DNA of 63,369 bases, filler included, from an uncultured Methanosarcinales archaeon (GTDB lineage: Archaea; Nanobdellota; Nanobdellia; Woesearchaeales; CAZKBD01), in NCBI GenBank assembly GCA_964550945.1. It is 4 parts of 3 records of this genome, joined end to end, with 100 filler letters (N's around TTAATTAATTAA, not from the genome) between each part and the next. Parts side by side here need not be neighbours in the genome. Positions count along the whole stretch, not along the records: positions 33,692 to 63,369 come from CAZKBD010000010.1; 3 more parts are not named here. One strand, written 5' to 3'. Below, piece after piece: positions 18,677 through 57,100 of the stretch. The notes under the pieces were generated by a model that was not told the origin of the DNA, ran no database searches, and saw nothing but the letters and a program-made list of their open reading frames with translations. The number at the start of each line of letters is the position of its first letter. Position 1 is the first letter of the stretch. Position numbers and translations under genes: made by a program.

Positions 18677-18696
18677 TTTGTTCACCATCTATCTTG

Positions 18697-20154
18697 TTAT
18701 GGCACGAACAAGAAATTCTTAAACTGCCATGCATCATCTTCATCAGCTCTGCTCTCAGGATTCTCCTTAAAAAAAATCTTCCTATTCTTTAATGGAGTCC
18801 AATCAGAAGGCATGGATAAAAATTTTCCGAGGTAAGGCCTGGCAATCTTAAGGATATAATCATGAGGCAAATCATCTGGCAGGCAAAGCCCTTTGGATGG
18901 ATTTTCAATCATCCACAAAACTGCAGACACAATGCCAATTGCAACTTGTATTGTTGTTGCATTCTGGCTGGGCAGTATCTTTCTTGTTTCTTCTATACTC
19001 ATTATGCTGCCTGTCCACCATGAGTTGTATACATGGCCCATCACTAATGCCCCAAGAATATCTTCACCAGACGTAATCTCATCAGACATTATCCTTAGTT
19101 TTGGCTGCATCTCGTAATTTCTGCACCTTAACTCATGTAGCGAAACAATTGTTTCATGGCAAGGCATATATGCATAATGCACTGTTGGCCGGTATATTGG
19201 TTTTCCATCCTTCAAGACAGTGAACCTGTCAGATATCCCAAATGCCTCTCCATGCCTTATAACCATGCCAACAATCTCGTGATAAGGTATCCAAGACCTT
19301 ACCCATGTGTTGATGCCCATCTGCGCCAGAAATATCTGATTCTTAGGCCCAATTGGGGGTATATGTGCTAGTTTAGGAAGGTGTTTTTCATGGGTTCCCC
19401 AACCCATCTCTGCTGGAGCAGTCCCCTCTTCCCTTAACCCTTCAATGCTCCATGTGCCAACAAATTCATCAACCTCTTTTGGCTTGCTTGTTAGTTGGGT
19501 GTCTCTTTCTGAGCAGTGAATTGACTTAACGCCCAGCTTCATAGACAGCTCTCCAAAATTATTTGACTCTATTAACTTGAGTAATTTTTCTGATTCTTCT
19601 TTAGAAACTTTCTTATCGCTAATAAGCTTATGCGCAATATCCACTAAAGCTTGTTTAGTGAAGTGTGAGATCAAGCCAGGATTTGCACCGTGGTCAACAA
19701 CTGCAGTAGTTGCATCCTTCCAGTTTTTTGTCAACTCTCTTAGCCTCATCTGCCTATAATACAATGACTTCTCATATGGGGAGGCCGAATAAATTTTTTC
19801 TTTTGGATCCCACTGCTCAACAGACGTGTTCACATACAACACTTCATGATCATGGCACCATTTTACAATCTCGCAGCAGTCTATATTCCATGCAAGGTCT
19901 ATCAATAAGTCTCCTTTTTTCAGAAATTCTGATAGGATATGATCCAATTCTTCTGGGCTGACTTTTCTCTGGAAGAATCTTACTCCTTTCTTTATCCATT
20001 CTTTAAGCTCGTGCTTTTTGTCTTCAAAATCAATTAAAGTAATATTTCCATGCGGGATTTTTATATGCTTCTCCAGCAAAGGAAGCGTGCATTTAGAAAC
20101 AGACCCGTAGCCAATAATCAAGACCTTTCCTTTAAATTCAATCATTTTTTTCAT
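18697..20154 (-). CDS. hss: homospermidine synthase
   Basis: IIGYGSV Rossmann motif, HGANPGLISHF, HCSERDTQ, TWSIEG, PAEMGWGTHE, HGEA, YRPTVHYAY, NATTIQV. Confidence 0.92.
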   Translation of the reverse strand: MKKMIEFKGKVLIIGYGSVSKCTLPLLEKHIKIPHGNITLIDFEDKKHELKEWIKKGVRFFQRKVSPEELDHILSEFLKKGDLLIDLAWNIDCCEIVKWCHDHEVLYVNTSVEQWDPKEKIYSASPYEKSLYYRQMRLRELTKNWKDATTAVVDHGANPGLISHFTKQALVDIAHKLISDKKVSKEESEKLLKLIESNNFGELSMKLGVKSIHCSERDTQLTSKPKEVDEFVGTWSIEGLREEGTAPAEMGWGTHEKHLPKLAHIPPIGPKNQIFLAQMGINTWVRSWIPYHEIVGMVIRHGEAFGISDRFTVLKDGKPIYRPTVHYAYMPCHETIVSLHELRCRNYEMQPKLRIMSDEITSGEDILGALVMGHVYNSWWTGSIMSIEETRKILPSQNATTIQVAIGIVSAVLWMIENPSKGLCLPDDLPHDYILKIARPYLGKFLSMPSDWTPLKNRKIFFKENPESRADEDDAWQFKNFLFVP

Positions 20155-35054: not shown

Positions 35055-35407
35055 CTAAAACGATTTTTACAAAATATCTTGGGACTCTTGCTGCAATCCT
35101 ATTGGTTATTGTTCTGGTGATTTTTACGGCATGTTCAAGGTCTAGCATCACCCAGGACCGCGCTGAGTGGGTTGCACAAGATTTTGTTAAAAAAAATGTC
35201 AAGTTCTTCGCTGCAGGTGAGCAGGAAAATAAAGATCTGCCTGAGTATACCATAGCGTCTATTACCAGCTACACTGAAGGAAGGATATGGGTAGTGGTTC
35301 TCCATGTAGAATCCAACCTGACCAATGAAACAAAAAAAGGAGATTTAGTCGTTAAAATCAACTCCCAAGGAAAGGTTGCAGAGTTTAATGGCAGGGAAAT
35401 CACATAG
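35051..35407 (+). CDS. putative lipoprotein (PepSY-like small domain)
   Basis: Signal peptide ending FTAC; C-terminal VKINSQGKV. Confidence 0.6.
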   Translation: MTKTIFTKYLGTLAAILLVIVLVIFTACSRSSITQDRAEWVAQDFVKKNVKFFAAGEQENKDLPEYTIASITSYTEGRIWVVVLHVESNLTNETKKGDLVVKINSQGKVAEFNGREIT

Positions 35408-36362
35408 ATTCATCAATAACAATCCTTGCAATGTTACAAATGAAATCCTCTATCTCTTTGAGATTCTCATAGATAATCATTGTATCAAAATCCGGATTTT
35501 TTTCAGAAACAGGAATGCACCTTTTAATAATGTCTTCTCTTCTTGAGGCAGTATTGTCTGCCAATTTTTTGTCTAGAGTGTAATAAGCTTTCATCACATC
35601 CAGATACGAGCTTCTAATATCCTGATATAATCTTTCTAGACTACCAAATTCAAATTTTTTGCTTTTTGAATTTAAGCTCTTTAAAGACAAACATATATTT
35701 TTATACGCATCGGCTGTATTCTCCAGGTTTATAATAAGATACCACAAAGAAAGGATTTTTGTGTTATCTATCTCAAAATGAGAAGCAAAAATAGGATCGT
35801 TTAAAGCGCCTTTTATCAGGCGGTATAAAAGAAAATACAGCCTATTGACATCAACATCCCTTAATTCTATATCTTCATACAGGTTCTTGTTTTTTATGTT
35901 ATCCACTAAATCCTGCGTCATTGACCTTATAATCATATCCATCCTTTTTATTATGCTGTTGATTGAGATCTCTTTTAAATCTAAAAAATCTTTTGCAATG
36001 ATTCTTGTTGATGTCTGCTCAATTATCTCAAGCCCGCTGAACTCATGCAAAATACGCCTTATGCCTTTTGTTTGATCAATTAGCTTACTGCCAATTATCA
36101 CGATTGAGCTGTAGTTGTTTATATAAGCTGATGTGAGTTCCCTTTCAATAGCATCAAGCTTTTTATCATCTATACTGATAGTTATCTCTTTCAGTTTTGG
36201 CTTTTCTTCTATCCTTTCCGGGGTGATTGAAAGCTTATTAGCAGAATCCTCTTTAATATACAGCAGATTTCCCCGCGTTAACTTATTCCTGCTAAGCCAC
36301 TCCTTTGGGAGCGAAATCGTATAGGACGATGCTCCTGATTTAACAAGCCTTCTTGCGTGCAT
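35400..36362 (-). CDS. AbrB-PhoU phosphate uptake regulator
   Basis: RRLVKSGASSYTISLPKEW AbrB domain; DVDVNRLYFL and NLENTAD PhoU repeats; start reassigned to ATG 36362. Confidence 0.88.
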   Translation of the reverse strand: MHARRLVKSGASSYTISLPKEWLSRNKLTRGNLLYIKEDSANKLSITPERIEEKPKLKEITISIDDKKLDAIERELTSAYINNYSSIVIIGSKLIDQTKGIRRILHEFSGLEIIEQTSTRIIAKDFLDLKEISINSIIKRMDMIIRSMTQDLVDNIKNKNLYEDIELRDVDVNRLYFLLYRLIKGALNDPIFASHFEIDNTKILSLWYLIINLENTADAYKNICLSLKSLNSKSKKFEFGSLERLYQDIRSSYLDVMKAYYTLDKKLADNTASRREDIIKRCIPVSEKNPDFDTMIIYENLKEIEDFICNIARIVIDESM

Positions 36363-36442
36363 TTTTAAGTATATACAAACTATTCTATCTATTTTATAAG
36401 TACATAAAGTATATATAAACCTTTCGCTCATTCTTAGCTAAA

Positions 36443-37201: not shown

Positions 37202-37215
37202 CTTAGGTGATTAAA

Positions 37216-38325
37216 ATGAAATTAAATGATGCTCCTTTATTGGCTAGATTTAGGAATTTTATATCAGGCATAAAATCAGACGATAAAACCTGCATAGTCT
37301 ACCATGCTGATTCTGACGGCGTTTCTTCTGCAGTCATAATAGCTAAGCTGATCAAAACCCAAACGCAAAATGGCATCAACCACATGTATTATTGGGATAA
37401 TATCTCGCGATTGGGCGGCCTTTTGAATGAGATAAAATTGAATATGCCTGATAAGCTGATCTTTTTAGATATAAGCGCAGACCAGTTAAAAGGCATTAAA
37501 AGATTTGAACAGCATTCCGATATCCTGATAATAGACCACCATAAATTATACAGGGATGTTAATTCAATAAAAACTATATTAATAAAGCCTCAGATGATAG
37601 ATCCAAAAGCAAGGCCTGAGGGGTATTGCTGCTCGAAATTATGCTATGATCTGGGAAATGAACTAGCTGATATGAATGATCTGGATTGGGTAGCTGCTAT
37701 AGGCATTCTTGGGGATTCGTGCTATGATCATTGGAAACTATTTGTGGACCATACACTTCAAAAGTACGGATTGAGCAATAGGCCTGATATATATAAGACT
37801 AAACTGGGCCAATCAGCAGAGCTAATATTTTACAGCATCGCCCATGACATAAAAAATGCCATGCTTTGTTATGATCTTCTGTACAGCTCTAAAAGCCCTA
37901 ACAGCAGACAAATCAGCTCGAAACTTAGCAGATATAAAAAAGAGATTGAAGATGAGATCAGCTACTGGGACAGCAATGTTAAAAAATTAGCAGAGAAATA
38001 CCCTAACCTCGATCTGATCATTGACTTAATCAAGCCTCGTTACTTCATAAACCCTGCAATCATTAAGAATCTGAGCCTTAAGAATCCTCATAAGACTATA
38101 ATCATAGCTCAAGATATGAATCTAGATACTTTGAACATAAGCGCAAGGAGAGCGGATAACAGAATAGCGCTTAATGAGCTATTAGAAAAATCTGTTAAAA
38201 ACCTTGAAGGGGCAAATGCCGGCGGCCATATAAACGCAGCAGGAGCCACAATAAAAAAGCGAGACTTCTTTAAGTTTAAAGAGAATATATTCAGGATATT
38301 ATCTTCAAGGCATCATGTTTTCTGA
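37216..38325 (+). CDS. DHH/DHHA1 family phosphoesterase
   Basis: YHADSDG, FLD, IIDHH, ISARR, GGHINAAGA. Confidence 0.92.
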   Translation: MKLNDAPLLARFRNFISGIKSDDKTCIVYHADSDGVSSAVIIAKLIKTQTQNGINHMYYWDNISRLGGLLNEIKLNMPDKLIFLDISADQLKGIKRFEQHSDILIIDHHKLYRDVNSIKTILIKPQMIDPKARPEGYCCSKLCYDLGNELADMNDLDWVAAIGILGDSCYDHWKLFVDHTLQKYGLSNRPDIYKTKLGQSAELIFYSIAHDIKNAMLCYDLLYSSKSPNSRQISSKLSRYKKEIEDEISYWDSNVKKLAEKYPNLDLIIDLIKPRYFINPAIIKNLSLKNPHKTIIIAQDMNLDTLNISARRADNRIALNELLEKSVKNLEGANAGGHINAAGATIKKRDFFKFKENIFRILSSRHHVF

Positions 38326-38367
38326 AAATTAAATCTCCCTTGTATCACTCTATAAATTTAGCAAATA

Positions 38368-38375
38368 TTTATAAA
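38368..38375 (+). promoter_or_regulatory. TATA-box-like promoter of the GGDEF gene
   Basis: TTTATAAA ending 24 nt before ATG 38399, spacing typical of leaderless archaeal genes. Confidence 0.55.
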
Positions 38376-38398
38376 AAAAGAGAATAAGTTAATGTTAG

Positions 38399-39961
38399 AT
38401 GGACAATACTAAACTAACCGGCCTTTTGGATGCGACTTTATTGGGAGAGATCATAAAAAAGTTTTTTGAGCCGTTAAAATCGCCTGTTTATGTTGTTGAT
38501 AGCAATGGAGAGATTCTTGCTCAATCTAAAGAACTTCCTTTCTTTTGCCAGATAATAAACTCCACTAAATCAGGGCCAGAGCTATGCAAGAAATGCAGAG
38601 CAGAATATTATGAGAAGGCAAAGCAATCAGAAGACAAGGTTGTTTTGTACCATTGCCATGCTGGCCTTTTGAACGCCCTTGTTCCTGTATTCATAAATAA
38701 AAACCAGATGGGAGCAATAATCTGCAGTGCGATATCCAAGGGAGGGATAGACCCTGGCGTTTTAAGAGAGGTGGGCAAAAAAATTAATGTGGATTATGAA
38801 GAATTAGCTGATGCTTTTATTATAATCCCCATCACATCAGAGGAAAACCTAAAAAGGGACATTAGCCTGGCATACTCTTTTTCAAATACAATACCTGAGC
38901 TGCTGTTCCAAAAAAAAATAAGTGATAAAAAGGTTGAAGGATTGTCTACATTACACAAAATAGGGCAAATAACAGGATCAACAACAGACCTATCTGATAT
39001 GATGCACAAAATTCTTGAGTTGATAAACACAACACCTTATTTTAAAAACTGCTCTATACTCATATCAGAGGGGGCTCATGCTGGTTTTTTGAGGTTTTGT
39101 ATTAAACGAGACTTAAACATTGAGAATTTTGAACATAAAGTATTTCAAGAGGTGAAGTACACAAATAACATATTCAGATTGAATAGCATAAATGATTACA
39201 TAAAGGACGGAGATCATGCATCAACTGACTATAAGGTTGTCGCTTTACCGCTTAAGATAAACAAGGAAATAATAGGATGTGCGGTATTCTATCTAGATCC
39301 TATTGAAGAATTAAATGATGAGGAATTAAACTTTACTTTTGTTTTTGCAGACCAAATATCTATGGCTGTGGGTAATTCTCAGCAGTTAGACCAGATAAAA
39401 AGCAAGGCAATAACAGACCAGCTGACAGGCCTTTATAACAGGGAGTTCTTTATGAATGCCCTTAAAAGAGACATGATCAGAAGCATTGAACTGAGGAGCC
39501 CCTTATCAACTGCTATCATAGATTTGGATGATTTTAAGCATTATAATGATACCTATGGCCATCTAAAGGGAGATACATTATTAAGTGAGGTCGCTAAAAT
39601 TATCAAGGCAGGCGCTAGAGAAAAGGATATAGTTGGAAGATATGGCGGTGAGGAGTTTATAGTTATAATGCCGGATACAAACAGCCATATGACCTTTGAC
39701 ATTCTTGAAGATATCAGAAAAAAAATTGAACAAAAAAAGTTCTTCGGAGAGGAATCCCAGCCTATGGGCAAAATAACTATAAGCGCAGGGATAGTTACTT
39801 GCATGGATAAATCGCTCTCTGAGATTGAATTGATAAAAGAAGCAGACCAGGCATTATACAAAGCCAAAAGAGAAGGCAAGAACAAGATAAGGAGCACAGT
39901 GATAGTTGATAGAAATTTAGTACCTATTGATGTACAGCAGGCAGAGCATTTTAACAGGTGA
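38399..39961 (+). CDS. PocR-GAF-GGDEF diguanylate cyclase
   Basis: PocR Cys motifs (FFCQII, ELC, YHCHAGL); GAF (VALPLK...IIG...FADQISMAV.N); TDQLTGLYNR, DLDDFKHYNDTYGHLKGD, RYGGEEF, ADQALYKAKREGKN. Confidence 0.95.
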   Translation: MDNTKLTGLLDATLLGEIIKKFFEPLKSPVYVVDSNGEILAQSKELPFFCQIINSTKSGPELCKKCRAEYYEKAKQSEDKVVLYHCHAGLLNALVPVFINKNQMGAIICSAISKGGIDPGVLREVGKKINVDYEELADAFIIIPITSEENLKRDISLAYSFSNTIPELLFQKKISDKKVEGLSTLHKIGQITGSTTDLSDMMHKILELINTTPYFKNCSILISEGAHAGFLRFCIKRDLNIENFEHKVFQEVKYTNNIFRLNSINDYIKDGDHASTDYKVVALPLKINKEIIGCAVFYLDPIEELNDEELNFTFVFADQISMAVGNSQQLDQIKSKAITDQLTGLYNREFFMNALKRDMIRSIELRSPLSTAIIDLDDFKHYNDTYGHLKGDTLLSEVAKIIKAGAREKDIVGRYGGEEFIVIMPDTNSHMTFDILEDIRKKIEQKKFFGEESQPMGKITISAGIVTCMDKSLSEIELIKEADQALYKAKREGKNKIRSTVIVDRNLVPIDVQQAEHFNR

Positions 39962-39971
39962 ATTTTATTGC

Positions 39972-41762
39972 CTATTGCCTATCTGCCTTTTCTATTGCAA
40001 GATTATGCGCCTCTATATAATTAGCGATCATAAATTTCCAGTCACATGTTGAAGCTAATTTTCTAGCTTCTATTTTATTAGTTATCCTATCATATTTGGA
40101 TAGTTTGCTAAAGTTGTACATAATCTTAGTTGATTCATCAATAACCTCTTTATCGCTTTTTCCCATTCTCTTTAGAACAAATATGCCTGGATTTTCTTTT
40201 GATGTTTCCAGTTGTTCTATAAACCTGCCAAAGCCAGCCAAGTCAGTAGTCACAGAAGAAACCCCAAGACCAGCTGCCTCTAAAGGTGTATAGCCCCAGG
40301 GCTCATAAAATGAAGGAAACAACCCTAGGTGAGAGCCCTGCATTGCTTCATAATAGCCCAAATCTAATAGGCGGTCTGCGCCGCTCAGGTAAATAGGGTA
40401 AAACACAATTTTGACAGGGTCTTCTTCTAAATTGTTTAGGTCAGCATTCTTTATGCTCCTTGATATTTGGTCGTTTTGATCATATAGGGTATGGGTAGTC
40501 AAAGGCGGGATTCCTTTTCTCTTTAACCTTGCGACTTTCTTTTTTAGCTCTAAAATCACATCATCCTCAAAAAGAGCATTTGCGCTGATTTTATTATTTG
40601 AGACAATCGAATATATAATATTGTGCTTGATGTCTATTGTCTGGTCTTCCATCAAATCCTTAATATCTCCAAAGTATGTTTTGTTTTCTAGCAGTTCCTC
40701 TCTTATTCCTTTAATGTTGGCAGGAACCCATATAAATGCAACAATTGTTTTTTTTGATCGCTCTTCTTTCAATTTTCTGTTCAGCTCACCTAGGGCATCT
40801 ATGAATATATCAATGCCTTTATCCTTGAACTCGTACCTTCCTGCAATAAAGTAAAATAGGACATCTTTTATGTCAAATGCATAATAAGGAAAAAAATAAT
40901 AAAGCAAAAATTCTCTTATTTTCACTCTTTGTTTCCTGTGTTCTATAGACGCCTCCTCAAACGTTGGAAATTTTTCCATGTCCAGGCCGTTCGGCAATAA
41001 CACATCTGGTTTTCTTTCAAGAAAATGCTCTGCTTCGATTCCTGTTATCTCGCTAACTGTAGTGAAAACATCTGCATTCTGCGCAGAGGCTTTCTCTATT
41101 AAGTGTTTTGCTTCAATGCTATACTTGTAGACCTCTTCTTTCTTGTTTATTTTGCCCAGCATCGAGTAAAAATTAACTCCGGCATTTGCTAATGTTCTGC
41201 CTAAAACAGTGGCGTGAGTTGTGAATATTTTAGCAATTTTTACATTATTTTTTTTAAGATACAACAAAGAAGATCCGGATAGCCACTCATGAAACTGTAC
41301 GACAGTCTTTTTGCTTTTCGGAAGGAATTCTAAAAGCTTTGCTACGCAATAGCCCCACATTAAAGGCTCATCATAATCATAACCTGCTCTTAAGGAATCT
41401 ATTTTGAAATAGTCCCAAAACTCTTTTTTAATCTGGTTAATCTTTGTTGGATCTCTAGGAAAGTCTATTAATATTGTAAGAGGCTCTCCTTTAACAAGCC
41501 ATCTGCCATAATGGCAAATGATATTTTCTTTTTTTAGTTTATTAAAAGGCTCCTTGTATTCTGATTTGGGCAGGCACTCTTCGAATTCACTTATCTGGTC
41601 AGCAAAATATGGGCCAATCAAACAATAATTTTCTCCATAAACTTCCATTAATCTAGCTGCCTTTGATTTGAGAACAGTGTTTATACCTCCTACCTTGTTG
41701 CATACCTCCCATGATACCTCAAATAAGAATTCTGCTTGGGGTTTCTGAATTTTCGCCTCCAT
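39972..41762 (-). CDS. glycogen synthase, GT3 family
   Basis: FEVSWEVCNKVGGI, FHEWL, FTTHAT.LGR, FTTVSEIT, GRYEF.DKG, FPSFYEPWGYTP.E. Confidence 0.95.
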   Translation of the reverse strand: MEAKIQKPQAEFLFEVSWEVCNKVGGINTVLKSKAARLMEVYGENYCLIGPYFADQISEFEECLPKSEYKEPFNKLKKENIICHYGRWLVKGEPLTILIDFPRDPTKINQIKKEFWDYFKIDSLRAGYDYDEPLMWGYCVAKLLEFLPKSKKTVVQFHEWLSGSSLLYLKKNNVKIAKIFTTHATVLGRTLANAGVNFYSMLGKINKKEEVYKYSIEAKHLIEKASAQNADVFTTVSEITGIEAEHFLERKPDVLLPNGLDMEKFPTFEEASIEHRKQRVKIREFLLYYFFPYYAFDIKDVLFYFIAGRYEFKDKGIDIFIDALGELNRKLKEERSKKTIVAFIWVPANIKGIREELLENKTYFGDIKDLMEDQTIDIKHNIIYSIVSNNKISANALFEDDVILELKKKVARLKRKGIPPLTTHTLYDQNDQISRSIKNADLNNLEEDPVKIVFYPIYLSGADRLLDLGYYEAMQGSHLGLFPSFYEPWGYTPLEAAGLGVSSVTTDLAGFGRFIEQLETSKENPGIFVLKRMGKSDKEVIDESTKIMYNFSKLSKYDRITNKIEARKLASTCDWKFMIANYIEAHNLAIEKADRQ

Positions 41763-41936: not shown

Positions 41937-42104
41937 ATGGTGAAAAGAAAGATTTCTATGACTATTGATAGGGATGTCTATGATGGTTTCAAAGATTTTT
42001 GCCAAAAGAATGGCATGAAGGTTTCTACTAAAGTTGAATTGTTAATGAGGGAAGCCACAACTAAAGATCAGACTCTAAAAAAATTCATTGAGCAAATCAA
42101 GTAA
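41937..42104 (+). CDS. ribbon-helix-helix (CopG-like) regulator, not in the ORF track
   Basis: Manual translation MVKRKISMTIDRDVYDGFKDFCQKNGMKVSTKVELLMRE..., 55 aa; alternating beta strand then two helices. Confidence 0.8.
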   Translation: MVKRKISMTIDRDVYDGFKDFCQKNGMKVSTKVELLMREATTKDQTLKKFIEQIK

Positions 42105-42159
42105 GCCACATTTTCCATTTATATTATATTTAATTTTGGGCGCAAAAGGCGCAAATGTG

Positions 42160-45100
42160 ATGAAATGTAAAAAGAGGTTTGGGCTATTAGTAGCCCTAAG
42201 TTTAGTAATAGTCGTATTAGTAACTCTATTAGTTAGTGCCCTCTATCTTGACAAAAGGGAATTTCTGGTTGGGGAGAGTGTTATAATAAACACGAGCTAC
42301 CTGAACAGTTCTGGGCTTCGATTGGATATTTCTTCTGGTAACCTGACCTATAGCTATTTTGGCTCTGAAAACGAGATTGAGTTTATTCCAAACGAAGAAG
42401 GACATTACTTTGTTGAGCTATTCAACCTGTCAGCTAGTAATCTAGCAGATAGCACTGATTTTTTTGTTAATACTGGCAACATATCAACACAGATAATCAA
42501 CAAAGACACCTATACATTAGGAGAGACTGTAATTATCAATCTTGGCTCTTTTGGCGAAATAGAAGAAATTTTGATTAGGGGCGGGAAAAACGATTACAGA
42601 TTTATTGGCAATACCACCAGCACTTTAATTTTTAGGCCTCCGGCAATTGGTGACTATCAAATAAATATCATCTCAAAAAATCTAAGCTTCCAGAAAAGCT
42701 TCAGCGTTGTTGCAGAAGAACAGAAAAGCTTATTTGAGATTACAACCGATAAAAAAGAGTATTTTGTTAATGAGCTAGTGAATATTTATTTTAATTTTAT
42801 AGGGAATGACAGCTATGAGCTGATAATAAAGTCTGATGCAAACACCTACCAGTTCTTGGGTGTGCCTGAAAGCCCGTTAAAATTTATTCCGAAGCAACAT
42901 GGAGAATATAGGATTGAATTATGGAGCGGTTTCAATCTATTGGCTGCTTCTTTGTTTTCTGTAAAGCCTGAGAAAGCAGAAGAAACAGCTAAGAGGATAT
43001 CTACTGATAAAAAGGAATATTCTTTTGGGGATACTGTTTATATCACTCTTGAAGGTAATGCAACTGAGTTAAGGATATTTAATGAAAATAATTCTTATGT
43101 GTTTGAGAGTCCTGTAAACAGTATAAGCTTTGTTCCAAAAAGGGCCGGGTTATATACCCTCACCGCGGTTTTTTATTTAGGGAATGTTAGTGAAGAGGAA
43201 CATATTGATTTTTATGTCAAGGAAGAAGAGAAAAAGTTCGATTATTTTTCTCTTGATAATGAGGCTGTTATAAAAATTGATCTTTCTGATGAACTCGAAG
43301 CTAGAAAGACAATCATTGATAGGATATTTGGGCTGTCACCCATTGAGCAAATAAGGGCATATGTTGAAAACCAAACAGAAAATAAGAATTTTAATCTATC
43401 GATAGATAAGCTGCAGGGCAGCGAATTTATTATAAATATTAAGACTAATTCAAATATTGAGCCTGGATTTTATAGGCTTGTAGTAGAGGCTTATATTCAT
43501 GGCGACTTAGTTGTTAAGACAAGGGATTTCCAGTGGGGGAATATAGCAGAAGAAGTGTTTGAGAATGCTACAATAACCAATGAGGCAGCAGCTGAGATAG
43601 AAAAACAGCTAAAATACAATTTTTTAGCTTCTGAGATGGCTGTTATTACTGTTGATTTTACAAGCGAAGTAAACAAGCCAAGAACAATATTAGAAGCTGC
43701 TTTGAAGAGAACAAAGGTTGATAAGATAAGCGCCTATGTTGAAGGAGAAGAAAACAATACAAATTTTAATACCTACATTGAACCTATAGAATTTGATAAA
43801 TTTTCTGTTAAACTCTCAGACAAGAATCTTGATCCAGATGTGTATAATCTAATAGTTGTTGTAAAATCAGATGATGCTTTCTATGCAAAACAAGTTCTGT
43901 TTAACTGGGGTTTGGAGGGTATAGAGCAGATAGAAGAGAGAATCAAAATTAAAAATAAGACCACGCCCTTAAAGGAAATTCTGGATATAACAAAAATCAA
44001 TGCAACAGAAGGGATTATTGTTGAGAATGCGACAAATGTTTCTTTGGCTAATATTACAAATATAACTGGAGTAATTGAGAATATCACAGGGACCAATATT
44101 AGCGAAGCTGTTATAACTAATTTAACAGCTATTAATCTACCAATCAATAAATCACAAAAGTTAATTAACTTAAGTACTAAATTAATTAGTGAAAATGAAA
44201 CAAAAAACAGGTTTTCTATTAGGGATTCAGCCAAAGCAAAAAAAGAAAATTTTAGTTTAAGATTCCTAAAAAACGGGAATCCAATAAACGAGCTTGCTGA
44301 GAATGAGAAATATGATGTTGAAGTAGAGCTAGAGGCTGAAAAAGTAAAAAAAATCTTGTTTAAAAATCTTAAGATAGCACAAACTCTCGATTTAGGGATA
44401 GATAGTGTTTCTTTTGAAAAACCTGGCATCAAAAACAAAAAAATTTTGAAAAGTTATGCAATAGATTCGTCGCAATTGAATTTCACTGAAGCTACCGTAA
44501 TAATTATGGCACAAGGGACTGAGCTGTATAAATGTAAGGATTGGAGCTTTGCTGAGCAAAGATGTTATGGCAACTGGGAAAAGATTATGGATATCATCCC
44601 TGGGCAAGAATATTCTTTTATATTAACGCCCGGTGATCCAGGATATGCAGAAACTGGCGTTGCTTCTGTAAACACAAAAAAATCAGTTTATCATCCTGGT
44701 GAAACTGCTGAAATAATCATTGTTGTGCTGGATATTGCAGGACATTTGGTTTCAAATGCTAATGTTAATCTCGAAATTAGTGGCCCTAATGGGCAAAAAA
44801 CATATTATTCAACTAGTGATATGACTGTTTCTGAAACATCAAGGGGAATCTATGAGTCTCTTTTTGAAACTGGAATTGAAGGTAATTATTCTATGATTGT
44901 GCATGCTGAGCGGGATCTAGTTAATTCAACAATGCACTCTTATTTTACTGTGAGAGATTATTATGAATTTGATATTATAAGAAATACGCCAGTAACCACC
45001 GACCCATGGAAGGGCGCATTTGATTCTGCTGTAAGGATAATATCATTTGCAGATGTTGGAATATTTAATTTTACTGAGATATTGCCTGGAAATTTTACTA

Positions 45101-48100
45101 TTACTGATTCTGGCGGCGCTATTGTTGCCAGCACTTCAGATTCTAAAATCCTGATATGGACCAATCTGGATAACAATTCTGTTGTTAGCTATTCTGCTTT
45201 GCCTCCTTTTAAAACACCTGAACTTTATTCTATAGGGCCTAGCAGGGTTAATTATGGGTCTAGCGAATTCATTGAATTCAGGCCTTGGTATCTTGCTGTA
45301 GATCCAGAGGTTACAAGCTTCTTCGATAATTTTGGCACTGGAACTGAGCCAGATGCAGCAAAATGGACTGAAACAGGGGGATTGTGGGATATAGTAAGTG
45401 GGAGAGGCCATGCTGAAAATTGTGATCCTCCAGGAGACCAAATAACATCGATAAGTATTGACCTATCACAAAGCCTATCAGCTAATCTGAGCTTTGCGTG
45501 GGAAATAAATGGGATGGATAGTGGTAGCGAGTGCCTATACCTTGACTTGTACAACAGGACCACATGGATAACCCAAGTTTGGTCTAGATGCGGAGCTAAT
45601 GCAGCAGGAACACAAGTGATAGATCTAGCAGGGTATATAGGGGGAAATTTTCAGCTAAGGTTTGATTGCCAATGCGATAACCCAAGCGATGATGCATATG
45701 TTGATAATGTAAATTTAACAAGTTTCCAGGCAGCTGATACGCCGCCAACATGGTCAAATAACCTTGTTAATGACAGTGCAATCTATCAGGGAGAATGGGT
45801 TAATTTTACAGTCCAATTTAATGATAATCTTCAATTGAATTATTCAATATTCAGCACTAATCTCTCGGGGAGATGGGCAAATGATTCAATAGTAAAATTC
45901 ACAGCAAAGCCGCAAAATGCGACGAATTCAACATATATCAACCAGACTGCAGGGTATGTTGTTGGGTGGAGATTTTACGCAAATGACAGCATAGGGCAAT
46001 GGAATGAAACATCTATTTTCAATTTCACTGTCTTAGGCGTATCATGGAACAATAAATCCCAGATGAGCTTTGGAGCAGTAGAGGCTGGAAGCATCAAGAG
46101 CTTCAATAGTACTATAGCGTCTTATGGGTCAAATACCAATGCTGCTGTAGCTTGTTTTGGCAACTGCAGCTATTTCCAAAGCAATTGGTCAACTGTTGCG
46201 ATGACTGGCAATTCTTTAGACATAATGATAAACTGCAGCGGCTCTTTGGCAGGAACCTATTCTGCTAATTACACTTTAGGATCGACACAGGATAAGATCA
46301 ATGACAGCATCCCTGTGAGCTGCACAATACAAGATACAGCTGCGCCAACAGTCCAGCTTGAAACCCCTGCCAATAACTCGTTTTGGCAAGAAGGATTCAA
46401 TATTGACTTCAATTTTAATGTTTCTGAAATTGCTGATTTGAGGAATTGCACTTTGATAGTTAATGGGCGGATCAATAAGACCAACAATACAGAAATTCTA
46501 AAAAGCACGGCTGGGCAAAAGATAACTCAAACAGTTGGAATTGGCAACTATAACTGGAGCATAAACTGCACAGATGTTAATGGCATTACTGGGGCGTCAT
46601 ATATCTACAATCTTACAGTAGATCAGGACCTATCAGCTCCGACTATCACGATAGTCTTTCCATTGAATGGATCATCTACTAATGATAATCCTGTTTACTT
46701 AAATATAACCACTAATGAAAATGCAACCTGCAAATACAATTCAACTAACTCTTCATTCAACTTTAATGTCAGCGGAAAATTATTCACAAATACTGTAAAC
46801 TTGCTGCATTCAGAAACACTTGGCAGCCTAGCTGAAGAAAATTACGCTTATTACATAAAATGCAATGACACTTTTGGCAATATAAACAACAATGCAAACC
46901 AAGCTTATACTAATTTTACTTTTGACAGGGCTATCCCAAATGTTAGCTTAAATTTTCCTGCAAATAACTCAAATTATTCAATCTCTAATGTGGTCTTTAA
47001 TTGGACTGCTTTTGACAGCTATGCAGACAACAACCTGAGCTGCAACCTAACAATTAATGGGCTTGTTAATGCTTCTAATATTGGCTCATTGAACAACAGC
47101 CCAAGTAACAAGACAGTATATATGAATAATGGGACATATTATTGGAATGTAACTTGCTGGGATGATGCTGGCAACACAAATAATTCAGTTTATTGGGTCT
47201 TGAATATTGATGGGGATGGACCAATAATACCTTCAGCATCTGTTAGCTCATCTCCGTCTGTTGCATCAGCTGGAAGCTCGATTGTAATTACTGCTAATGT
47301 GAGTGATGGCTATTCAAATGTTAGCACAGTGTTTGTAAATATTACTTTGCATACCTCAGGCACACACTACTCGTACAAGATGGCTTCGATTGGGCAAAAT
47401 CAATACAGCTACACATTTACTGATACAGCCACAGTTGACATTTATGATTATACCATATGGTCAAATGACACAGCAAGCCCTACAATCAATTTTGGATCTT
47501 CAGGGCTAAACTCATTTGAGATAGCTGGAATTAGGACTATACTAAGCATACAAACATTAAACAAGACATATGGCCAAAACAATATTGTAAATATTTCCCA
47601 AAATCAAAAAAACCATACAGCTAATCTTGAGAGCGCTGGCAGGACAATATTTGCTTATAACTCCTCTGGATTCAAGAGGTATAACTATTCAAATTATCTA
47701 AATGAAGCACAGCATGCTTATTACAGCCAGGCTGCAGGCGCAAATCCTCCTAGCTCAGGCCCTGTAATCACTGGAGAAATTGAATTCACTGCTGCTTATT
47801 ACGCAGCCTCGAATTTCTCTGACGATTCAAGAGTGGATGCTGGGCCTGCAAATGATATCAAAAGCCACAGATTCCAGTTTAATATCACTACAGATGTTTC
47901 TTTGATACAGAATATTGTTCTATTTTACGAGGGGCATAGCACTGGCGGAGAAACTATTGTGTTGTATGTTTGGGATTATTCGTCTCTTGCATGGGAGTCG
48001 CTTGGAAGCTATAGCACAGCTGGTGTTGACTGGAAAGCAAGCTATACTAAATCGTCTAGCTTATCTAATTACATAAACTCGAGCGGTTTGCTGCAAATGG

Positions 48101-51100
48101 CTGTGGTTACAAATACTCCTGCCAGCGCTGAGCGCCTTAGGACTGACCATGTCCACCTTAATGTAAGCTGGTTAAATGAAACAGATGGAGAGGCAAGCTC
48201 TTCCTTTGTAAATTATACTTCAATCGGATCAGAAAATTATACTAAGCTGACAGACATAAACATTGACATAATCACTGGGCATTACAATGCAAGCGGTTCG
48301 ATAATAGCGGGCAATAATTATCCTGATTTAGAGGTGCAGGTTTTTGATGGAGGGCAATATTCTTACAATTATTCCTGCAGCTTAAACAGCACCTATAGCA
48401 ATGGAGGAACTTTTGACTATAACTGCACAGACCAAATAGTGAATAAGACGATTCTTGCAGCATGGGCCAACGCCTCAAACAGAATGATAAGGGTGAGGGG
48501 CATAAATCTTGACTCAGAAGGAGCTGGACAGGATATGTTAAACTGGAGCGCTGTATATGTGCATTTGGAAACTCCATCAAAAGTTGAGAATTATGGATTA
48601 TTAAACCTTTCAGGCAGGCTATTATTAAAAATAGAAAAGCTTAATGGTACCAACTGGAATACTGTAAACGTGCTGCATAATGATTCATTAAATGTGGCGG
48701 TGAACCAGTCTATTGACATATCCTCTTATTGGAATGATGACAACTGGACTACTGATACGAGAGAGCTAGGCGAGTATAGGGCATATTCAGCACTTACTGA
48801 CTCCAGCGGCAATGTATTGCAGCATCAGGATGGCAGCTATCTGAATGACTCTTTTATTTTTAATATAAGCTATCTTAAGATTGAGATTCAAAACCCAATC
48901 AATGGATCAACAGTTGATGCCACTGGATTTTGGGCGAATATAAGCTTGAATGACAGCTATTACTCAAGCGGCGGCTGGTGCGTTTTTAGCATGGATAATG
49001 GCGCTAATATAACTATGAATAATGATAGTGGAAGGCACTTCTACAATTACACTAACTATACAACAGTTGCGCAGCACAATATCACTTTTTATTGCAATGA
49101 CACCAGAAATGTGATAACTCATGCTGTTACCCTTTTTAGCGCAACTGACCAAACCTCACCAACAGTTAACCAGATGTACCCTCCGAATGACGCAGATGGC
49201 CTTGGGTCTGAAATAACCTTCAAGTATAATGTCAGCGATTTAGTCTCAACAATTGCGAATTGTACGGTCTATGTTGATGAAGGAAGCGGTGGAGAGATTA
49301 AGCAAACGAACTTCTCTGTGTCTAAGGATAAGGAGATGAATACTACTATTAGTGGGATATCTACAGGAGAAGCGCATACATGGGTTGTTAAATGTTATGA
49401 TAGCTCTACTAATAATAACCTTGGCGCTTCATCAACAAGAAATTTCTTTGCTGGCACTGATTCAGATCCACCAAGCATTGGATTGGGAAATCCCCAGGAT
49501 GATGATATAAGGTCAAATAATGATGTTACATTCTTTCACTATGCTTATGACGCTTCAGGAATAGATAATTGTACCTTGATCCTAAACCAAAGGGCAAATG
49601 CCACAAACCAATCTGCAGTTAAATTATCGTTTACTGTTACTGATAATAATATAACCCTTACAGATATGCCTATTGGCCAATATAATTGGACTGTCAATTG
49701 TACAGACAGCTCTTCTTGGCACAATATTGGAACTTATGAGCCGCACAGGAATCTGACAATTATCCAGGATACAGACTATCCTGCAATAACCCTTATCTGG
49801 CCTCAAACCAGCTATACTGACAGCGATGGAAATATTGACTTTCAATTTAATGTAACTGATGCTTCTTCAGGAATAACTAATTGCAGTGTAGTCATAAATG
49901 ATACAATCAACAGTACAGATGCAACAATATCAGAAGGGACTACAATTACCATCCCTGTTTATAATATATCTCAAGGAGACTGGAATTGGTACATCAATTG
50001 TACAGATAACAGCTATCAGACTAACAGAAATAATTCAGAACGAAGAAATTTCACTATCACTATTCTACAGAATCTTATTGTAAATGTAAGTACTAATCAA
50101 AGCAGCTATCAGAAAGGGACTGAGCAAAATGACACAATATACACTTTAACAAGGGTAACTGACCAGCTAGGCAATGCTTTAAACTCTTCTGTGATTACAG
50201 ATATAATAAGCACAAATACAACATTGCAGTGGTGGAATACTAGTTGGAAGAGAAGGAAAGCCATTTATTTGAATGAGACTGACGGCTTTAATAGAGACCA
50301 ATACCTTATTGAGGTTAATGTCAGCGGTTTAGCAGGATTTGTAACAAACTGCAATTGGCAATTAAGAATCATTGAGAATATAACGACCAAATTTTCAGAG
50401 GTTCCATTCCAAGTTCTAAAAGGCGATAATTCCACATGGTGCAGCGTAGCGTTTAAGGCAAACCTAACCGCTAATAAAAACGAACAAACTAGGTATTACG
50501 CTTATTACAATTATTCAGGAGCTGCAAACCCGAATTATAATGCAGTGGTTATTCCTGGCATAAGGATATACAATTATTCAAACTATGGGGCTGATGGGCA
50601 TCGCGCTTATTACAGCGATAATCCCTCTAGTGGTGGGCCACAGCCGCCAAGTATTGGCCCTGCTCTTGATGGCGAAGTTGAGTTTACGAGCCAACAGTAC
50701 AATAATATAAAAACATCAGATACAACGAGAGCAGCAACTTCTCAAGTGGCTACAGAGCGAAGCTTCAAATTTATCATTAACACCACAGGCAATGTTTCAG
50801 ATATGACTAACTTAAGCTTTTATTGGCAAGGCTATTCTGAAGGCAGCACTTCACAGCCAGTGATACTTTATTTACGAAATTTTACAGGCTCAAGCTGGAA
50901 GCAATTTGGCGAGCATTCCACTTCAGCAGGAGATAATACCACCCAAAACTGGACAAACAAGGGAATATCAGATTATATAAATTCTACCGGCCAGATGGTA
51001 ATTGCAGTAGTTACTGCTGATCCTACTGGAGGAGGTGACTTCTTCTATACAAATTACATCTATGCAACAACAACAATTGAAGCTCGGAGCAATATATCCA

Positions 51101-54100
51101 GTTTGGGAGTAGTACAGGAATTCATAAATAGGAGTATAAATGATACGGGATCTGATGGAATCTTTGGCTTTAATATCAGCAGCGATGGTTTGGATTTAGG
51201 ATGGTATAGCGCAATTTCAAGGGTCAGTTCAACTAATTATCAAAACGCTACTAATAGCACATTATTTAGGATCATTGCAGATGTCACAGCACCGCAAGTT
51301 AACCTGATGTCTCCAGTACCATCCTATTCAAGTACCACAGGAAACATCACTTATGAGTATAATGTTTCTGACTGGCATAGCAGTATTGCGAACTGCACTT
51401 TGATAATTAACAACAACAGAAACATCTCTAATCTCACAGCAATAACTGAAAATTCCAAATTGAATTTCACATTGAACAGTATTAGCAATGGAGATTACAC
51501 ATGGAATGTTAATTGTACTGATAACAGCGCTAATAATAATATTGGAACTGGCACATCAAGGGCATTCTCTGTGCAGTTTGACTCTAGGGGGCCAGGCATT
51601 AATCTGCTCACACCCACCAATTGGTGGAATGATACCAATGGAGCAGTGAATTTTACGTATAATGCGAACGATGATTACAACAATATTGCAAATTGCAGTT
51701 TGGTTATAAATGGCACAATCAACATAACAAGAACAAATGTTCCTGAAGGCGTTACACAGGATTTTGGGCAATGGAACCTTAGCAGCGGAGACTATTACTG
51801 GTACATCAATTGCACGGACAGCAGCGCTGCAAACAACATGAACCAATCACTTATTAGGAATTTTAGCGTTCAAATTGATACTGTTGCACCAAGCATTAAT
51901 ATTCTGTCTCCTGGCATAACATCTCAAAGCACCACAGGAAATGTTTCTTTTGTATTTAATGTGACTGACGCAATTTCAAATATTGCAAACTGCAGCATAA
52001 TCTTTAATGGAACAATAAACTTCACTAACTCTAGTGTTAACAAAAACACAATGCAGAATTATACAATTTTTAACATTACTAATGGGCTTACTTTGTGGAA
52101 TATCAGTTGTGCAGACAATTCAGAGAACTATAATATTAACATAACAGCCTCAAGAAATTTGACTGTGGCAACTGACACAGATGGGCCTGCAATATATTTA
52201 GAGGATCCTCCATCTGATGCGCAGGTTACAATCACTGATGTTTTCTTTAAGTATAATGTTAGTGATTTGGCTAGCGGAGTAGTGAATTGCAGCCTATTCA
52301 TAAATGGCAGCATAAACTGGACTAACACTAGCATCCAGGAATCAAGGAGCCAGAACTTTAGCATATACAGTATTGCTAATGGGGATTATGTGTGGTGGGT
52401 GAATTGTACAGATGACTGCACTTTAAATAATAATGCCATGTCAGAAAAAAGGAATTTGACAATTGGGCTGGATACAACTCCTCCTGTGATAACTCTTCAA
52501 TATCCTCCTGAGACAGGCTTTAATGATACTGATGGAACTGCCACATTTAGGTATAAAGTAAATGATTATGCTTCTGATATTGCAAACTGCAGCATTATTA
52601 TTGACGGCAAACTAAACCAAACTAATTCCTCGTATATTTATGAGAATAAAGACAATCAAAATTTCACAATTGCTAATATCTCCAACAGCACACACACATG
52701 GCAGATAAACTGCACTGATAAAGCTGCAATACCTAATCAAGGCAATAGCAGCATCAGAATCTTCTTAATTAATTTGGATTTTGATGGGCCTGCTGTTGCA
52801 TTAATCTCTCCGCAAAACAACAGCTTGGACAGTGACGGGCATGTTACTTTCAGCTATAATGTTAGCGATGCTATTTCTGATATATCCAACTGCAGCCTCA
52901 TAATCAACAATCAGCTTAACAGAACCAATACAAGCGTGGTTGAAGGAGCAGCTCTGAACTTTATGTTATTAAATATGTCTGACGGCCAATACAACTGGAG
53001 TGTAAATTGCAGTGATAATTCAGACAGCAGAAATACAAATAGCTCTGAAACAAGAAACCTAACTGTATTGATTGATAATGTTCCTCCTGCTATAAATCTT
53101 TCGAGCCCTGCAAACAATACTCTAGATACAGATGGGATAAGGATATTCTATTACAATGTTTCAGATTACCTGACTAATATCACTTCATGTTCGCTTATAT
53201 TCAATGGCCAAGCGCAAAAAACAAATACTTCTGTTAGAGAAGACATCATCCAGAATTTTAGCATGGAGAATATTGCAAACGGCCAATACAACTGGAGTGT
53301 AAATTGCACTGATGGCTCTGACAACCACAATGTAAATGCATCAGAAATAAGGAATTTCACAGTAATGGTTGATATAACGCCGCCTTCAGTAAGGCTAATA
53401 TCTCCAGATAACTTTACCCAAGATATTGATAATAATGTATTTTTTGTTTATAATGTAAGCGATTATTTCCCAATTGCAAATTGCAGCCTGATAATTAATG
53501 GCACTCTCAACTGGACTAATAGCTCTATTCAAACAAACATATCGCAAAATTTCTCAATATACAATATGCCAAATGGAACATATGAATGGTCTATCAACTG
53601 CACTGATACAACTGAGACAAACAATAGGAATAAATCAGAGACAAGGATATTGATTGTTGAGCCAGATGTCACTGCTCCTTTAATAAATCTGGAATACCCT
53701 CCCCAATGGCTTACAGATACAGATGGGGACGTATATTTTAATTATAATGTGAGCGATTTTGCAAGTGGAATAGCAAATTGCAGTTTAGTAATCAATGGAG
53801 CAAGGAATTATACCAATTCTAGTATAATAGAAGGCATATCGCAAAATTTCTCTATATTGGGTATGGCAAATGGAAACTATTCTTGGCAAATAAATTGTAC
53901 AGACACAAGCATAAGGAATAATGTTGGCAACAGCTCAATCAGAAATCTGACTATTGGCACAGATGTCACAGGGCCTACAGTGAATTTGGTTAGCCCGTCT
54001 AATAATACAATCACTCCAGACAGAACAGTTATTTTTGGCTATACTGTTTATGACACAGCTTCTTCTATCCGCAATTGCAGCTTAATGATAAATGACATTG

Positions 54101-57100
54101 TGAATAGAACAAACACGACAGTTACAAACGATGAAAATCTGGTGCAAACATTCACTATGCAAGATATGCCTGAGAAAAGCTATATATGGAGAATTAATTG
54201 CTCTGACAGTGCAAACAATTTTGGCTACAGCACTTTGTATAACTTCACAATTAACTATCCAGACTTACTCAATGTGCTGATCAATGCCACTAACCAGTCA
54301 TATGAGGAAGGGAGCATTGTTAGATTTACGACAAACACAACAGACAATGCGACTAATCAGTTGAATGCTTCTCTTAGCGTTGATATAATCCAAGGCAATG
54401 CAAGCTTTGGATGGTGGAACACAAGCTGGCGCTACAGAATACCAATTTTCATAAACAGCACAAATGTTTCCAGGATAGATAGGCTAATTGAGCAGAGGAT
54501 TAATTTCACTGAAAGATTAAATAGCGAGCTAAGCCTGCAGAACAGCTTTGACCACAAATCAGTTAGAGTGGTTGAGCTGGCCAGCAACCAATCAAACGAA
54601 ATCCCAAGCCAGTTTAATCTGGATAGTGATTATAATGCGCTAACAAATGCTATTGGAACAACATATTGGATCTTAAACTCAACTACACAACAAAATACGA
54701 TAAGGTATTACTATATCTATTTTGAGACTGCAGACAATTCAAAGCCCGGCAAGAATTATTCTATGCCCACACTTAACTTTTATGGAACCTCAAAAACAGT
54801 AAGCTACAATGGAGGGAGCATAACTGCTGACAAAGTTGCAGTAAATCAAAGCGGGGGCTCTTTTAGTCTGCAATTTGCTAATGGAAATGAGCTTCAAGGC
54901 CAGGACAGCATAGGCTACCAAGGAGGAGGCAGCATATGGAATATAACTCTAGCTAACACGCTGCTGACAAATCTGCATTCAACAATTGTGCCGTTCTCGA
55001 TAATGACTCAAGGCTATCTGTCAGCTAACAATAGCATTTCTGTTGACACTGGCTCTGTTGTGACCAAGATAAGGGTAAACGGAAATGCGACATTGCTTGC
55101 AGACTCGAATGCAGAAATAAACTACACAATATGGTTTAGCGGATCAGAAATATTCATGAAAGCTCAGCTTTATGCTTATTTCGGAGCTGGAGCAAATGAC
55201 CCTGCAAGCCGCTATCAAAACATATGGCTTGCTTATCTGCTTGACAATGAAACTAACTGGGGCGCTTATCTAGACAATGGAGTGAGCATGCCCTTCTCAA
55301 GACAGCACAGGTATAAAAATACCCAACCCGGAGGAAATGATAATGTTTATGCCAGCAGCTGGTATCAGGAAAACGATACGCTAGGATCAATAAATGTCTA
55401 TGCGGAGAATTTTAAGAAAAACGGAGCTGAGCAGGCAAAGGGTGTTGTTATTTTTGATGATGGAACACAAACAGCCCCGGAATCAGACTCTATAGGATTT
55501 AATTACAATGAAAACCAGATAACAGCTGGCACGACTTACTATATCAATGCACTAATGGTCTTTTCCACTGATGGAAGCACTTCAAGGATTTTGAGTTTAA
55601 GGGAAGATATTGAATCACAAATAAACATTACAAGCTACAGGGCAGAGAAGTTGATCAACAGAACCAGCGGCATAACAACAAATGGCATTTTTTATAACAA
55701 TTGGAGCAGCACAAATTATAGCAGTGGCTGGTATAGCGCAGTTGCTTCTGCAAACATCACTCCATTTTACAAATTTGGATCTGATTATGCATTATTTGAG
55801 ATTACTGCAGATTTAATAGTACCAACAATCAATATTAGCACTCCAGAAGGATGGATAAAAGATGCGAATATAACCTTTGCATATAACCCCTTCGATAATA
55901 ACCTAATGATAGCTAATTGCACATTAGTGCTAAATAATGCGGCTAATATCACAAACAGCTCAGTGATAAACAGCCAATGGAATTATTTCTATTTGTATAC
56001 TATGCCTCAAAGAACTTATAACTGGAGTGTAAATTGCACTGATGAGGCAGGCAATAAGGGCAATAGCTCACAAAAAACAATCTATGTAGATTATACAAAG
56101 CCTTCAATTAATTTGAGCTATCCAAACAATTCTGTCACAATAAACACATCCCTTGTTGAATTTAATTTCACAGCACTTGATAATATGGCTGTTAATTTAA
56201 CATGCAACCTAACATTAAATGGAGTAAACCAGGGAACTGTAAGTGCGACAAATGGAACACTCACTAACATAACGCAATCACTAGCCCAAGGCACTTACTT
56301 GTGGAATATCACTTGCAATGATCTTGCTGGAAATGTAAACACTTCTGAAACAAGGACTTTTGTCATTGATACAGGGCCGCCAATAGTGACTTTGGTAAGC
56401 CCAAAATCACCAAACAATTGGGATAAGGATGGCAACATTACTTTTATTTATACAGCAGCAGACTCATCAACAATATCAAATTGCTCTTTAATAATCGATG
56501 GCAAACTAAACTGGACTAACCATTCAATTAGCAATGGAGGGTATAATAATTTTACAGCAACATCTATGTCTAGCGGCAGGTACAATTGGACAGTAAATTG
56601 CAGCGATGCTGGAGCACAAATTGGTACAGCTGCTGCTGAATTATTCTATGTTGATCTGATAAAGCCAAATATTACCCTGAGTAGGCCTCAGCAAAATGCC
56701 ACCTTAAATATAACGACTATTGAATTTAATTTTACAGCAACAGACAACTTAGATACCAATCTAACATGCAACCTCACTTTAAATGGGGTTGTAAGGCATG
56801 AGGCTTTCCAGGCAGACAATGGCTCAATAACCTCAAAAGCAGTCTCGAGCTTGACAGATGGATTTTATTTGTGGAATGTGACATGTGTAGATAATGCTAC
56901 GCAGGCCAATACAAGCGAAACCTGGAATTTCACCATAGACACAGTACCTACAATTGCTCTCAATAATCCTGACAACAATCGCTGGTTTAGCGCTAGAAAT
57001 ATCACATTCTATTATGCGCCAAGCGATACTGTTGGCTTGGTGAACTGCAGCTTTATTCTTAACAGTATAGTTAATCAGACAAATAGAACTATATTAAATA

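Follow-up and report, generated by a model that had tools for sequence, protein, structure and literature searches.

A canonical PocR-GAF-GGDEF gene in a Woesearchaeales genome, a predicted diguanylate cyclase native to a DPANN archaeon

The window (the whole analyzed stretch of 63,369 nucleotides) is made up of pieces from three contigs (C2, C4 and C10) of a Woesearchaeales genome (G000), and the C10 piece, at positions 33692 to 63369, carries the gene of interest, P0001. This gene (38399 to 39961, plus strand, like the features within it) encodes a predicted PocR-GAF-GGDEF diguanylate cyclase of 520 amino acids, as indicated by the open reading frame, Pfam and TIGR00254 matches and a structural model. 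The PocR sensor domain (residues 9 to 166; 38423 to 38896) matches PF10114 with an E value of 3e-25 and 89.5 bits, above the cutoff of 23.9. It contains C50, C63, C66, C86, H87 and C109, and each of the five cysteines is kept in 16 to 20 of 31 orthologues in the family alignment. Sequence search found no solved relative of this domain; the ligand of the PocR family is described as a small alcohol or hydrocarbon derivative (PMC13725321). The GAF domain (about residues 196 to 324; 38984 to 39370) is a weaker assignment, as its GAF_2 match (E value of 7e-5) lies below the Pfam cutoff, and it is supported by the strand and helix order of the model and by Pfam GAF calls on most full-length orthologues. 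The pair of sensor domains read from the sequence by an earlier note is thus retained, with GAF at this lower strength. A helix at residues 307 to 336 (39317 to 39406) leads into the DQLT turn (residues 340 to 343) and is predicted to be a signaling and dimerization stalk, a role suggested by solved stalk cyclases. The GGDEF domain (residues 337 to 496; 39407 to 39886) is assigned by Pfam (E value of 3e-44), by TIGR00254 (173.6 bits against a cutoff of 37.4) and by alignment to WspR, its best solved relative.

The AlphaFold2 model, built from an 18-sequence alignment (pLDDT of 85.6 and pTM of 0.53), places PocR, a long helix, GAF, the stalk helix and GGDEF in that order, and its best solved Foldseek matches are the sensor-stalk cyclases PadC and Dcsbis. 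P0001 shares the GGDEF fold, the DxLT and RxxD motifs and the stalk with WspR (3bre, 3i5c), PadC (5llw), Dcsbis (4zmu) and PleD but differs from these bacterial enzymes in its input domains, with all matches below equivalog cutoffs. Hydropathy indicated no membrane-spanning stretch in P0001 (the best 19-residue mean, 1.69, falls within the PocR sheet), and no export feature was found in the protein.

Upstream of the gene, a BRE-like AAA and a TTTATAAA box (38361 to 38375, plus strand) were recognized with a genome-wide positional profile. TTTATAAA begins 31 nucleotides upstream of the ATG, and TTTAWA has its maximum at exactly -31 across 748 genomic upstream regions (58 matches, versus about 1 to 8 at positions outside -34 to -28). 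The AAA at -5 to -3 from the box also agrees with the BRE profile of the genome. The TATA-like promoter reported previously therefore sits at the modal position, and the element fits a predicted leaderless archaeal promoter.

The motif for metal, transition-state and guanine binding, DLDDFKHYNDTYGHLKGD (residues 375 to 392; 39521 to 39574), was located by alignment and matches the pattern D.D.FK..ND.YGH..GD; motif positions and the family alignment place the REKD inhibitory site and the GGEEF active site at 39617 to 39658. Aligned to WspR, P0001 has a complete class I GGDEF set (DQLT, DLDDFK, N383, G387H388, G391D392 and RYGGEEF), and REKD (residues 407 to 410) is followed, after five residues, by GGEEF (residues 416 to 420). 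The intact catalytic motifs and the RxxD site described in the earlier note are thus borne out. The roles of individual residues are presumably those of PleD and WspR, checked by alignment to WspR only.

A family alignment of 31 nonredundant sequences (25 to 48% identity) separates a fixed core from a variable pair. D340, T343, N347, D375, D377, F379, N383, G387, H388, G391, D392, R414 and GGEE are invariant in all 31 members. K380 and D384 are both present in 19 members and both missing in 12, so catalysis may be weak or absent in some of the family. The 12 variant members carry F[GST]xYNN with GGEE retained, a variant active site. P0001 belongs to the 15 members in which the lysine, the aspartate, GGEEF, D392 and RxxD are all present. 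R361 is also present, and position 438 is Asp, versus Arg or Lys in 24 of 31 members; we take both positions, from PleD, to be those of secondary I-site arginines. Taken together, the sequence makes it very likely that P0001 is a cyclase.

Upstream lie a gene for a DHH-DHHA1 phosphoesterase (37207 to 38325, plus strand) and one for an AbrB/MazE-PhoU regulator (35400 to 36431, minus strand), the latter recognized from Pfam and locus comparison as part of a shared chromosomal slot. Downstream and convergent is a GT3 (eukaryote-like) glycogen synthase gene (39972 to 41762, minus strand; Pfam and locus comparison). The neighborhood also includes a 252-residue protein with 12 sequons and, at 42088 to 59538, a 5,816-residue Ig-like surface protein that carries 394 N-glycosylation sequons; a 731-residue CARDB protein comes next. 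The neighbors named in the earlier note, AbrB-PhoU and the sequon-rich proteins, are present as it described them. The glycogen synthase was considered as a linked output and rejected, as it adjoins the cyclase in only 1 of 15 family loci.

C10 is 29.7 kb long, lacks universal markers and gave no Rfam match, and the ribosomal, eRF1 and A-ATPase genes of the window are no evidence of origin because they lie off this contig. The assembly is a 177-contig metagenome-assembled genome with 92.5% completeness and 2.3% contamination. The archaeal origin of P0001 is indicated instead by its relatives. Seventeen of its best 18 homologues are full length and set apart from partial bacterial matches; a taxon is given for five of the 18, all “Ca. 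Woesearchaeota,” the rest being unnamed or without a taxon. Full-length matches occur in five relatives among 61 genomes, and orthologues include those of one-contig and three-contig genomes. The full PocR-GAF-GGDEF gene was found at 15 of 26 loci examined, near which a YchF-like GTPase gene (11 of 15), Oap genes (6 of 15), AbrB-PhoU (5 of 15) and DHH (5 of 15) recur, and a PocR-less GAF-GGDEF form occupies the same slot in two further genomes. In the window, AbrB-PhoU and DHH are kept upstream and glycogen synthase lies downstream; no YchF-like gene was detected in the G000 assembly.

Composition and assembly evidence point the same way. The codon use of P0001 is at the 26th percentile of the genome, and the tetranucleotide fit of positions 1 to 8400 of C10 is 0.972, versus a median of 0.970, with the whole contig ranking 54th of 68. 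Contigs from public runs, which may be the source samples, bridge the junctions from DHH to the cyclase (37547 to 38573 and 38223 to 39004) and from the cyclase to the synthase (39591 to 40220) without differences, at a read depth of about 3 to 5. Two runs show a loose end at 38895 that other contigs bridge. From a second study came only short identical stretches within the gene, and none of the public contigs spans the whole region. Support for P0001 as a native, Woesearchaeales-type DPANN gene rather than contamination comes from synteny, the names of orthologues, the promoter, composition and the bridging contigs.

Archaeal GGDEF proteins active as cyclases in bacterial reporters were described in 2026 (PMC13725321), so that the earlier statement that no characterized archaeal pathway was known is out of date. 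The gene is real, but the surprise attached to an archaeal cyclase was overstated, given that the class had already been published and that the lineage commonly carries the family. In its main text, that study contains no mass spectrometry terms and does not mention PilZ; a PocR-GAF-GGDEF protein is among the 20 from metagenome-assembled genomes that it lists. One cloned member, MBT3408960.1 of “Ca. Woesearchaeota,” increased biofilm in a catalysis-independent manner and does not figure among the proteins with cyclase readouts (PMC13725321). It has the architecture of P0001 and belongs to its family; P0001 and the database protein that matches MBT3408960.1 share 33% identity across 503 residues. 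Unlike the canonical P0001, MBT3408960.1 has GGEEI, and the matching protein has DIDHFSNYNN, without the lysine; P0001 is thus the better test of the family. Another archaeal protein, GGDEF_MRE50 of Methanocella arvoryzae, also has PocR ahead of a helical linker and GGDEF, and its cyclase activity appeared after linker changes (PMC13725321). It differs in its REC-PAS-PocR-GGDEF-HD-GYP architecture and lineage, P0001 having a GAF domain and no phosphodiesterase domain. So far, c-di-GMP is undetected in an archaeal cell (PMC10249747 and PMC13725321).

Profile scans were extended to 201 genomes of the order with at least 85% completeness, G000 included (the tallies include G105, G124, G166, G185, G187 and G189, which are marked unpublished). 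GGDEF was found in 104 of the 201, often in several copies, and the earlier description of archaeal GGDEF hits as rare is wrong for this order. Pfam profiles detected EAL in 5, HD_5 in 52, MshEN in 2 and PilZ in 2 genomes, and such counts are lower bounds, since profile scanning wrongly gave no PilZ in G000. PocR occurs in 15 genomes, 14 of them in the P0001 family. Neither EAL nor HD_5 was detected in 69 of the 104 GGDEF genomes; 33 of the 52 HD_5 genomes have GGDEF (P = 0.055, with kin not independent). In a class-wide sample, GGDEF was found in 48 of 201 genomes, 31 of those outside the order. Literature outside subscription papers yielded no census or receptor study of GGDEF or PilZ in Woesearchaeota or of HD-GYP in Nanoarchaeota.

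In a tree of 165 GGDEF columns and 60 rows, 26 of 28 family rows and P0017, a family-like sequence, formed a clade with support of 99/93, the bootstrap being not fully settled. Full-length homology, this clade and the common slot place P0001 in the Woesearchaeota PocR-GAF-GGDEF family. In a quick tree of 114 rows, the two family rows from G103 and G115 fell outside the clade; the remaining woesearchaeal GGDEFs were dispersed among bacterial rows, most of the forks being open. A single grouping of all woesearchaeal rows was not rejected (AU test P = 0.61; 112 rows, two long rows left out), and the bacterial rows had been picked for likeness to the query (outgroups from at least 80 bacterial loci of a GTDB-wide locus scan), so the tree does not separate one origin from several.

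A search of G000 (92.5% complete) for other signaling parts detected no EAL, HD_5, MshEN, DAC, ComFB or archaellin, and its four HD proteins all lack HD-GYP motifs. The same genome-wide check, which the earlier note had proposed, did yield a stand-alone PilZ gene of 120 amino acids on contig C1 (G000:C1:50865-51224, plus strand; L180:8866-9225), recognized by motif scan, Pfam and the ESM Atlas. A strict PilZ pattern had 3 matches in 1,824 G000 open reading frames, versus 2.5 expected by shuffling; the C1 frame is the only one open at its position. Both binding motifs, R23xxxR27 and N53xSxxG58, are intact, and the sole Pfam match is PilZ (E value of 2e-4), at 22.0 bits just 0.5 bit under the cutoff of 22.5. 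The ESM Atlas gave 0.95 by features and a TM score of 0.66, its neighbors being all PilZ by features and mostly PilZ by structure. The one close homologue found is 83% identical and keeps both motifs, with differences almost only outside the core; there was no PDB sequence match and no relative in metagenome contigs. Contig C1 has the highest tetranucleotide fit in the genome and carries an archaeal-type S15. The protein resembles stand-alone bacterial PilZ adaptors in its single domain, its RxxxR and [DN]xSxxG motifs and its PilZ-like predicted fold but differs in lying on an archaeal contig, within an MEP-pathway operon. These features make it a plausible c-di-GMP reader in G000.

The PilZ gene is inserted between dxr and ispDF. 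The MEP pathway was rejected as a PilZ target: dxr orthologues (44 to 71% identity) occur in 16 of 110 relatives, dxr abuts ispD or ispDF in 8 of these 16, and three others have unrelated inserts there, so the position is likely a mere insertion site. With a four-row PilZ profile, the tally rose by one genome to 4 of 201, each of which has GGDEF; one of the four genes is cellulose-synthase-like, lies on a short contig and is possibly foreign. Among the 201 genomes, PilZ-like genes occur in none of the others that bear the P0001 family. With so few carriers, PilZ is not the general c-di-GMP reader of the order. Two genomes belonging to a single genus have zinc-ribbon-PilZ genes adjoining a gene for a Cdc48-type ATPase (L145:1252-1860 and L182:1309-1833).

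The DHH-DHHA1 protein upstream of P0001, identified from Pfam, homologues and fold, belongs to a DPANN subfamily; its named homologues are DPANN. At E values below 1e-30, 16 of 201 genomes carry the subfamily, which stands apart from the weaker, near-universal DHH matches (185 of 201), and 13 of the 16 have GGDEF. At six loci the gene immediately precedes the cyclase gene, overlapping it at five, with a 73-nucleotide gap in G000; it is one gene away in two more and elsewhere in the other seven examined, often by dnaK/dnaJ. Inherited gene order explains this adjacency as well as function does. The protein has the two-domain fold of archaeal RecJ (5x4h) and pAp phosphatase (8a8k), to which it is closer than to NrnA, and is shorter than archaeal RecJ. 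With NrnA/CnpB/Pde2 enzymes it shares the DHH metal motifs and GGGH (GGH invariant), but the NrnA RxRxR is replaced by SAR. CnpB, of the DHH superfamily, is reported to cut c-di-GMP weakly (PMC9779919), and the Pyrococcus yayanosii pApase is reported not to cut it (PMC8268124). The protein may at best be a weak candidate for c-di-GMP or pGpG breakdown, with the odds against it.

A second cyclase gene, encoding GAF-GGDEF with GGEEF and an RPED I-site, lies on another contig (G000:C75:1258-2577; L028); its product lacks the catalytic lysine (DLDHFGNVNN) and has a long insert late in the domain. Four matches to secretion- or pilus-type ATPases were found in G000. A c-di-GMP-I riboswitch search gave no match, and its control was silent too.

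The reading we favor, with a probability of roughly 70%, is that P0001 is a long-resident archaeal GGDEF member, a predicted cytoplasmic sensor cyclase making c-di-GMP for the archaeon's own use. The helical stalk of a dimer would shift in response to a small metabolite or redox cue acting on the cysteine-rich PocR domain or to a ligand bound by GAF; two GGDEF domains would meet and join two GTP into c-di-GMP, and product bound at REKD would brake the enzyme. The messenger would likely be read by the C1 PilZ protein and by other receptors yet unrecognized, and, by analogy, the likeliest output would be attachment via pili and surface proteins. As far as the assembly shows, breakdown would not proceed via EAL or HD-GYP, DHH-DHHA1 being a candidate. 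Of the functional c-di-GMP signaling in a DPANN archaeon proposed earlier, the native canonical cyclase stands, and signaling within the cell is likely, given the PilZ gene. A whole archaeal circuit of P0001, the C75 cyclase, PilZ and the DPANN-restricted RecJ-like DHH-DHHA1, together with an old, order-wide c-di-GMP messenger mostly read by an undescribed receptor class, is a speculative extension that we think doubtful.

Among the alternatives, the one that survives best, though we judge it unlikely, is that P0001 serves mainly as a scaffold sensing GTP or c-di-GMP, with little or no synthesis, in a family drifting from catalysis. The joint loss of K380 and D384 in the variant members, the catalysis-independent effect of MBT3408960.1 (PMC13725321) and the scarcity of known receptors and phosphodiesterases in the order would fit, but P0001 retains the full canonical set, and even the members of the variant branch all keep GGEE and the metal aspartates. 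DPANN cells are generally regarded as symbionts, and no known receptor was detected in most GGDEF genomes of the order, so a messenger or enzyme aimed at a bacterial host or partner, as the earlier note also suggested, might be considered. This is improbable for a protein with no export or membrane feature, its own feedback site and a candidate receptor in its own genome, and HD-GYP-type genes in about a quarter of the relatives also argue against it. Synthesis of another cyclic dinucleotide, e.g., 3',3'-cGAMP, would suit the few c-di-GMP receptors and the one Hypr enzyme among the structural relatives (6d9m), but it is highly improbable, as Ser in place of Asp in xxGD marks cGAMP makers (PMC13725321), residue 392 is Asp in all 31 members, with the Hypr-type Ser absent, and G000 has a canonical PilZ. 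Bacterial contamination or a chimeric contig, which the fragmented assembly, the markerless C10 and the shallow read depth might suggest, is largely refuted by orthologues with conserved synteny across many families of the order, including a one-contig genome, by the archaeal promoter and archaeal-type DHH neighbor and by the bridged junctions.

The archaeal GGDEF cyclase class itself is already known (PMC13725321). What is added here is the census of the order, a canonical counterpart to the variant that is the only tested member of the family, and a coresident PilZ. PMC13725321 describes archaeal GGDEF distribution as sporadic and single copy and lists as open questions how many archaea have GGDEF genes, whether phosphodiesterases co-occur with them and which proteins are the archaeal receptors. 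By contrast, profile scans place GGDEF in about half of Woesearchaeales genomes, often in multiple copies, with EAL, PilZ and MshEN nearly absent. Because a canonical cyclase and a candidate receptor occur in one genome, both could be tested in Escherichia coli or in vitro without archaeal culture, and the predicted PilZ in the genome of this small archaeon from groundwater may offer a handle on archaeal c-di-GMP output.

Several further observations concern other loci. PfkB-type kinase-GGDEF fusions occur at L023:6919-8583, L116:6162-8519 and L025:7122-9187 and are split in one genome; the best NCBIfam match is inosine/guanosine kinase, and the gene has an HD gene on one side and the PocR-GAF-GGDEF gene on the other, so that a nucleoside-sensing cyclase is possible. 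G000:C1:45266-55075 holds a bacterial-type MEP operon (dxs, ispG, dxr, ispDF, ispE and ispH) with a polyprenyl synthase and a geranylgeranyl-reductase-like gene, dxr being present in 17 of 111 genomes. Elsewhere in the window, the gene for ribosomal protein L4 (15492 to 16297) is split across two overlapping frames, by a frameshift or an assembly error, and a PLP-dependent decarboxylase and a saccharopine-dehydrogenase/homospermidine-synthase-like protein are encoded as a pair (17504 to 20154) between the ribosomal and ATPase operons.
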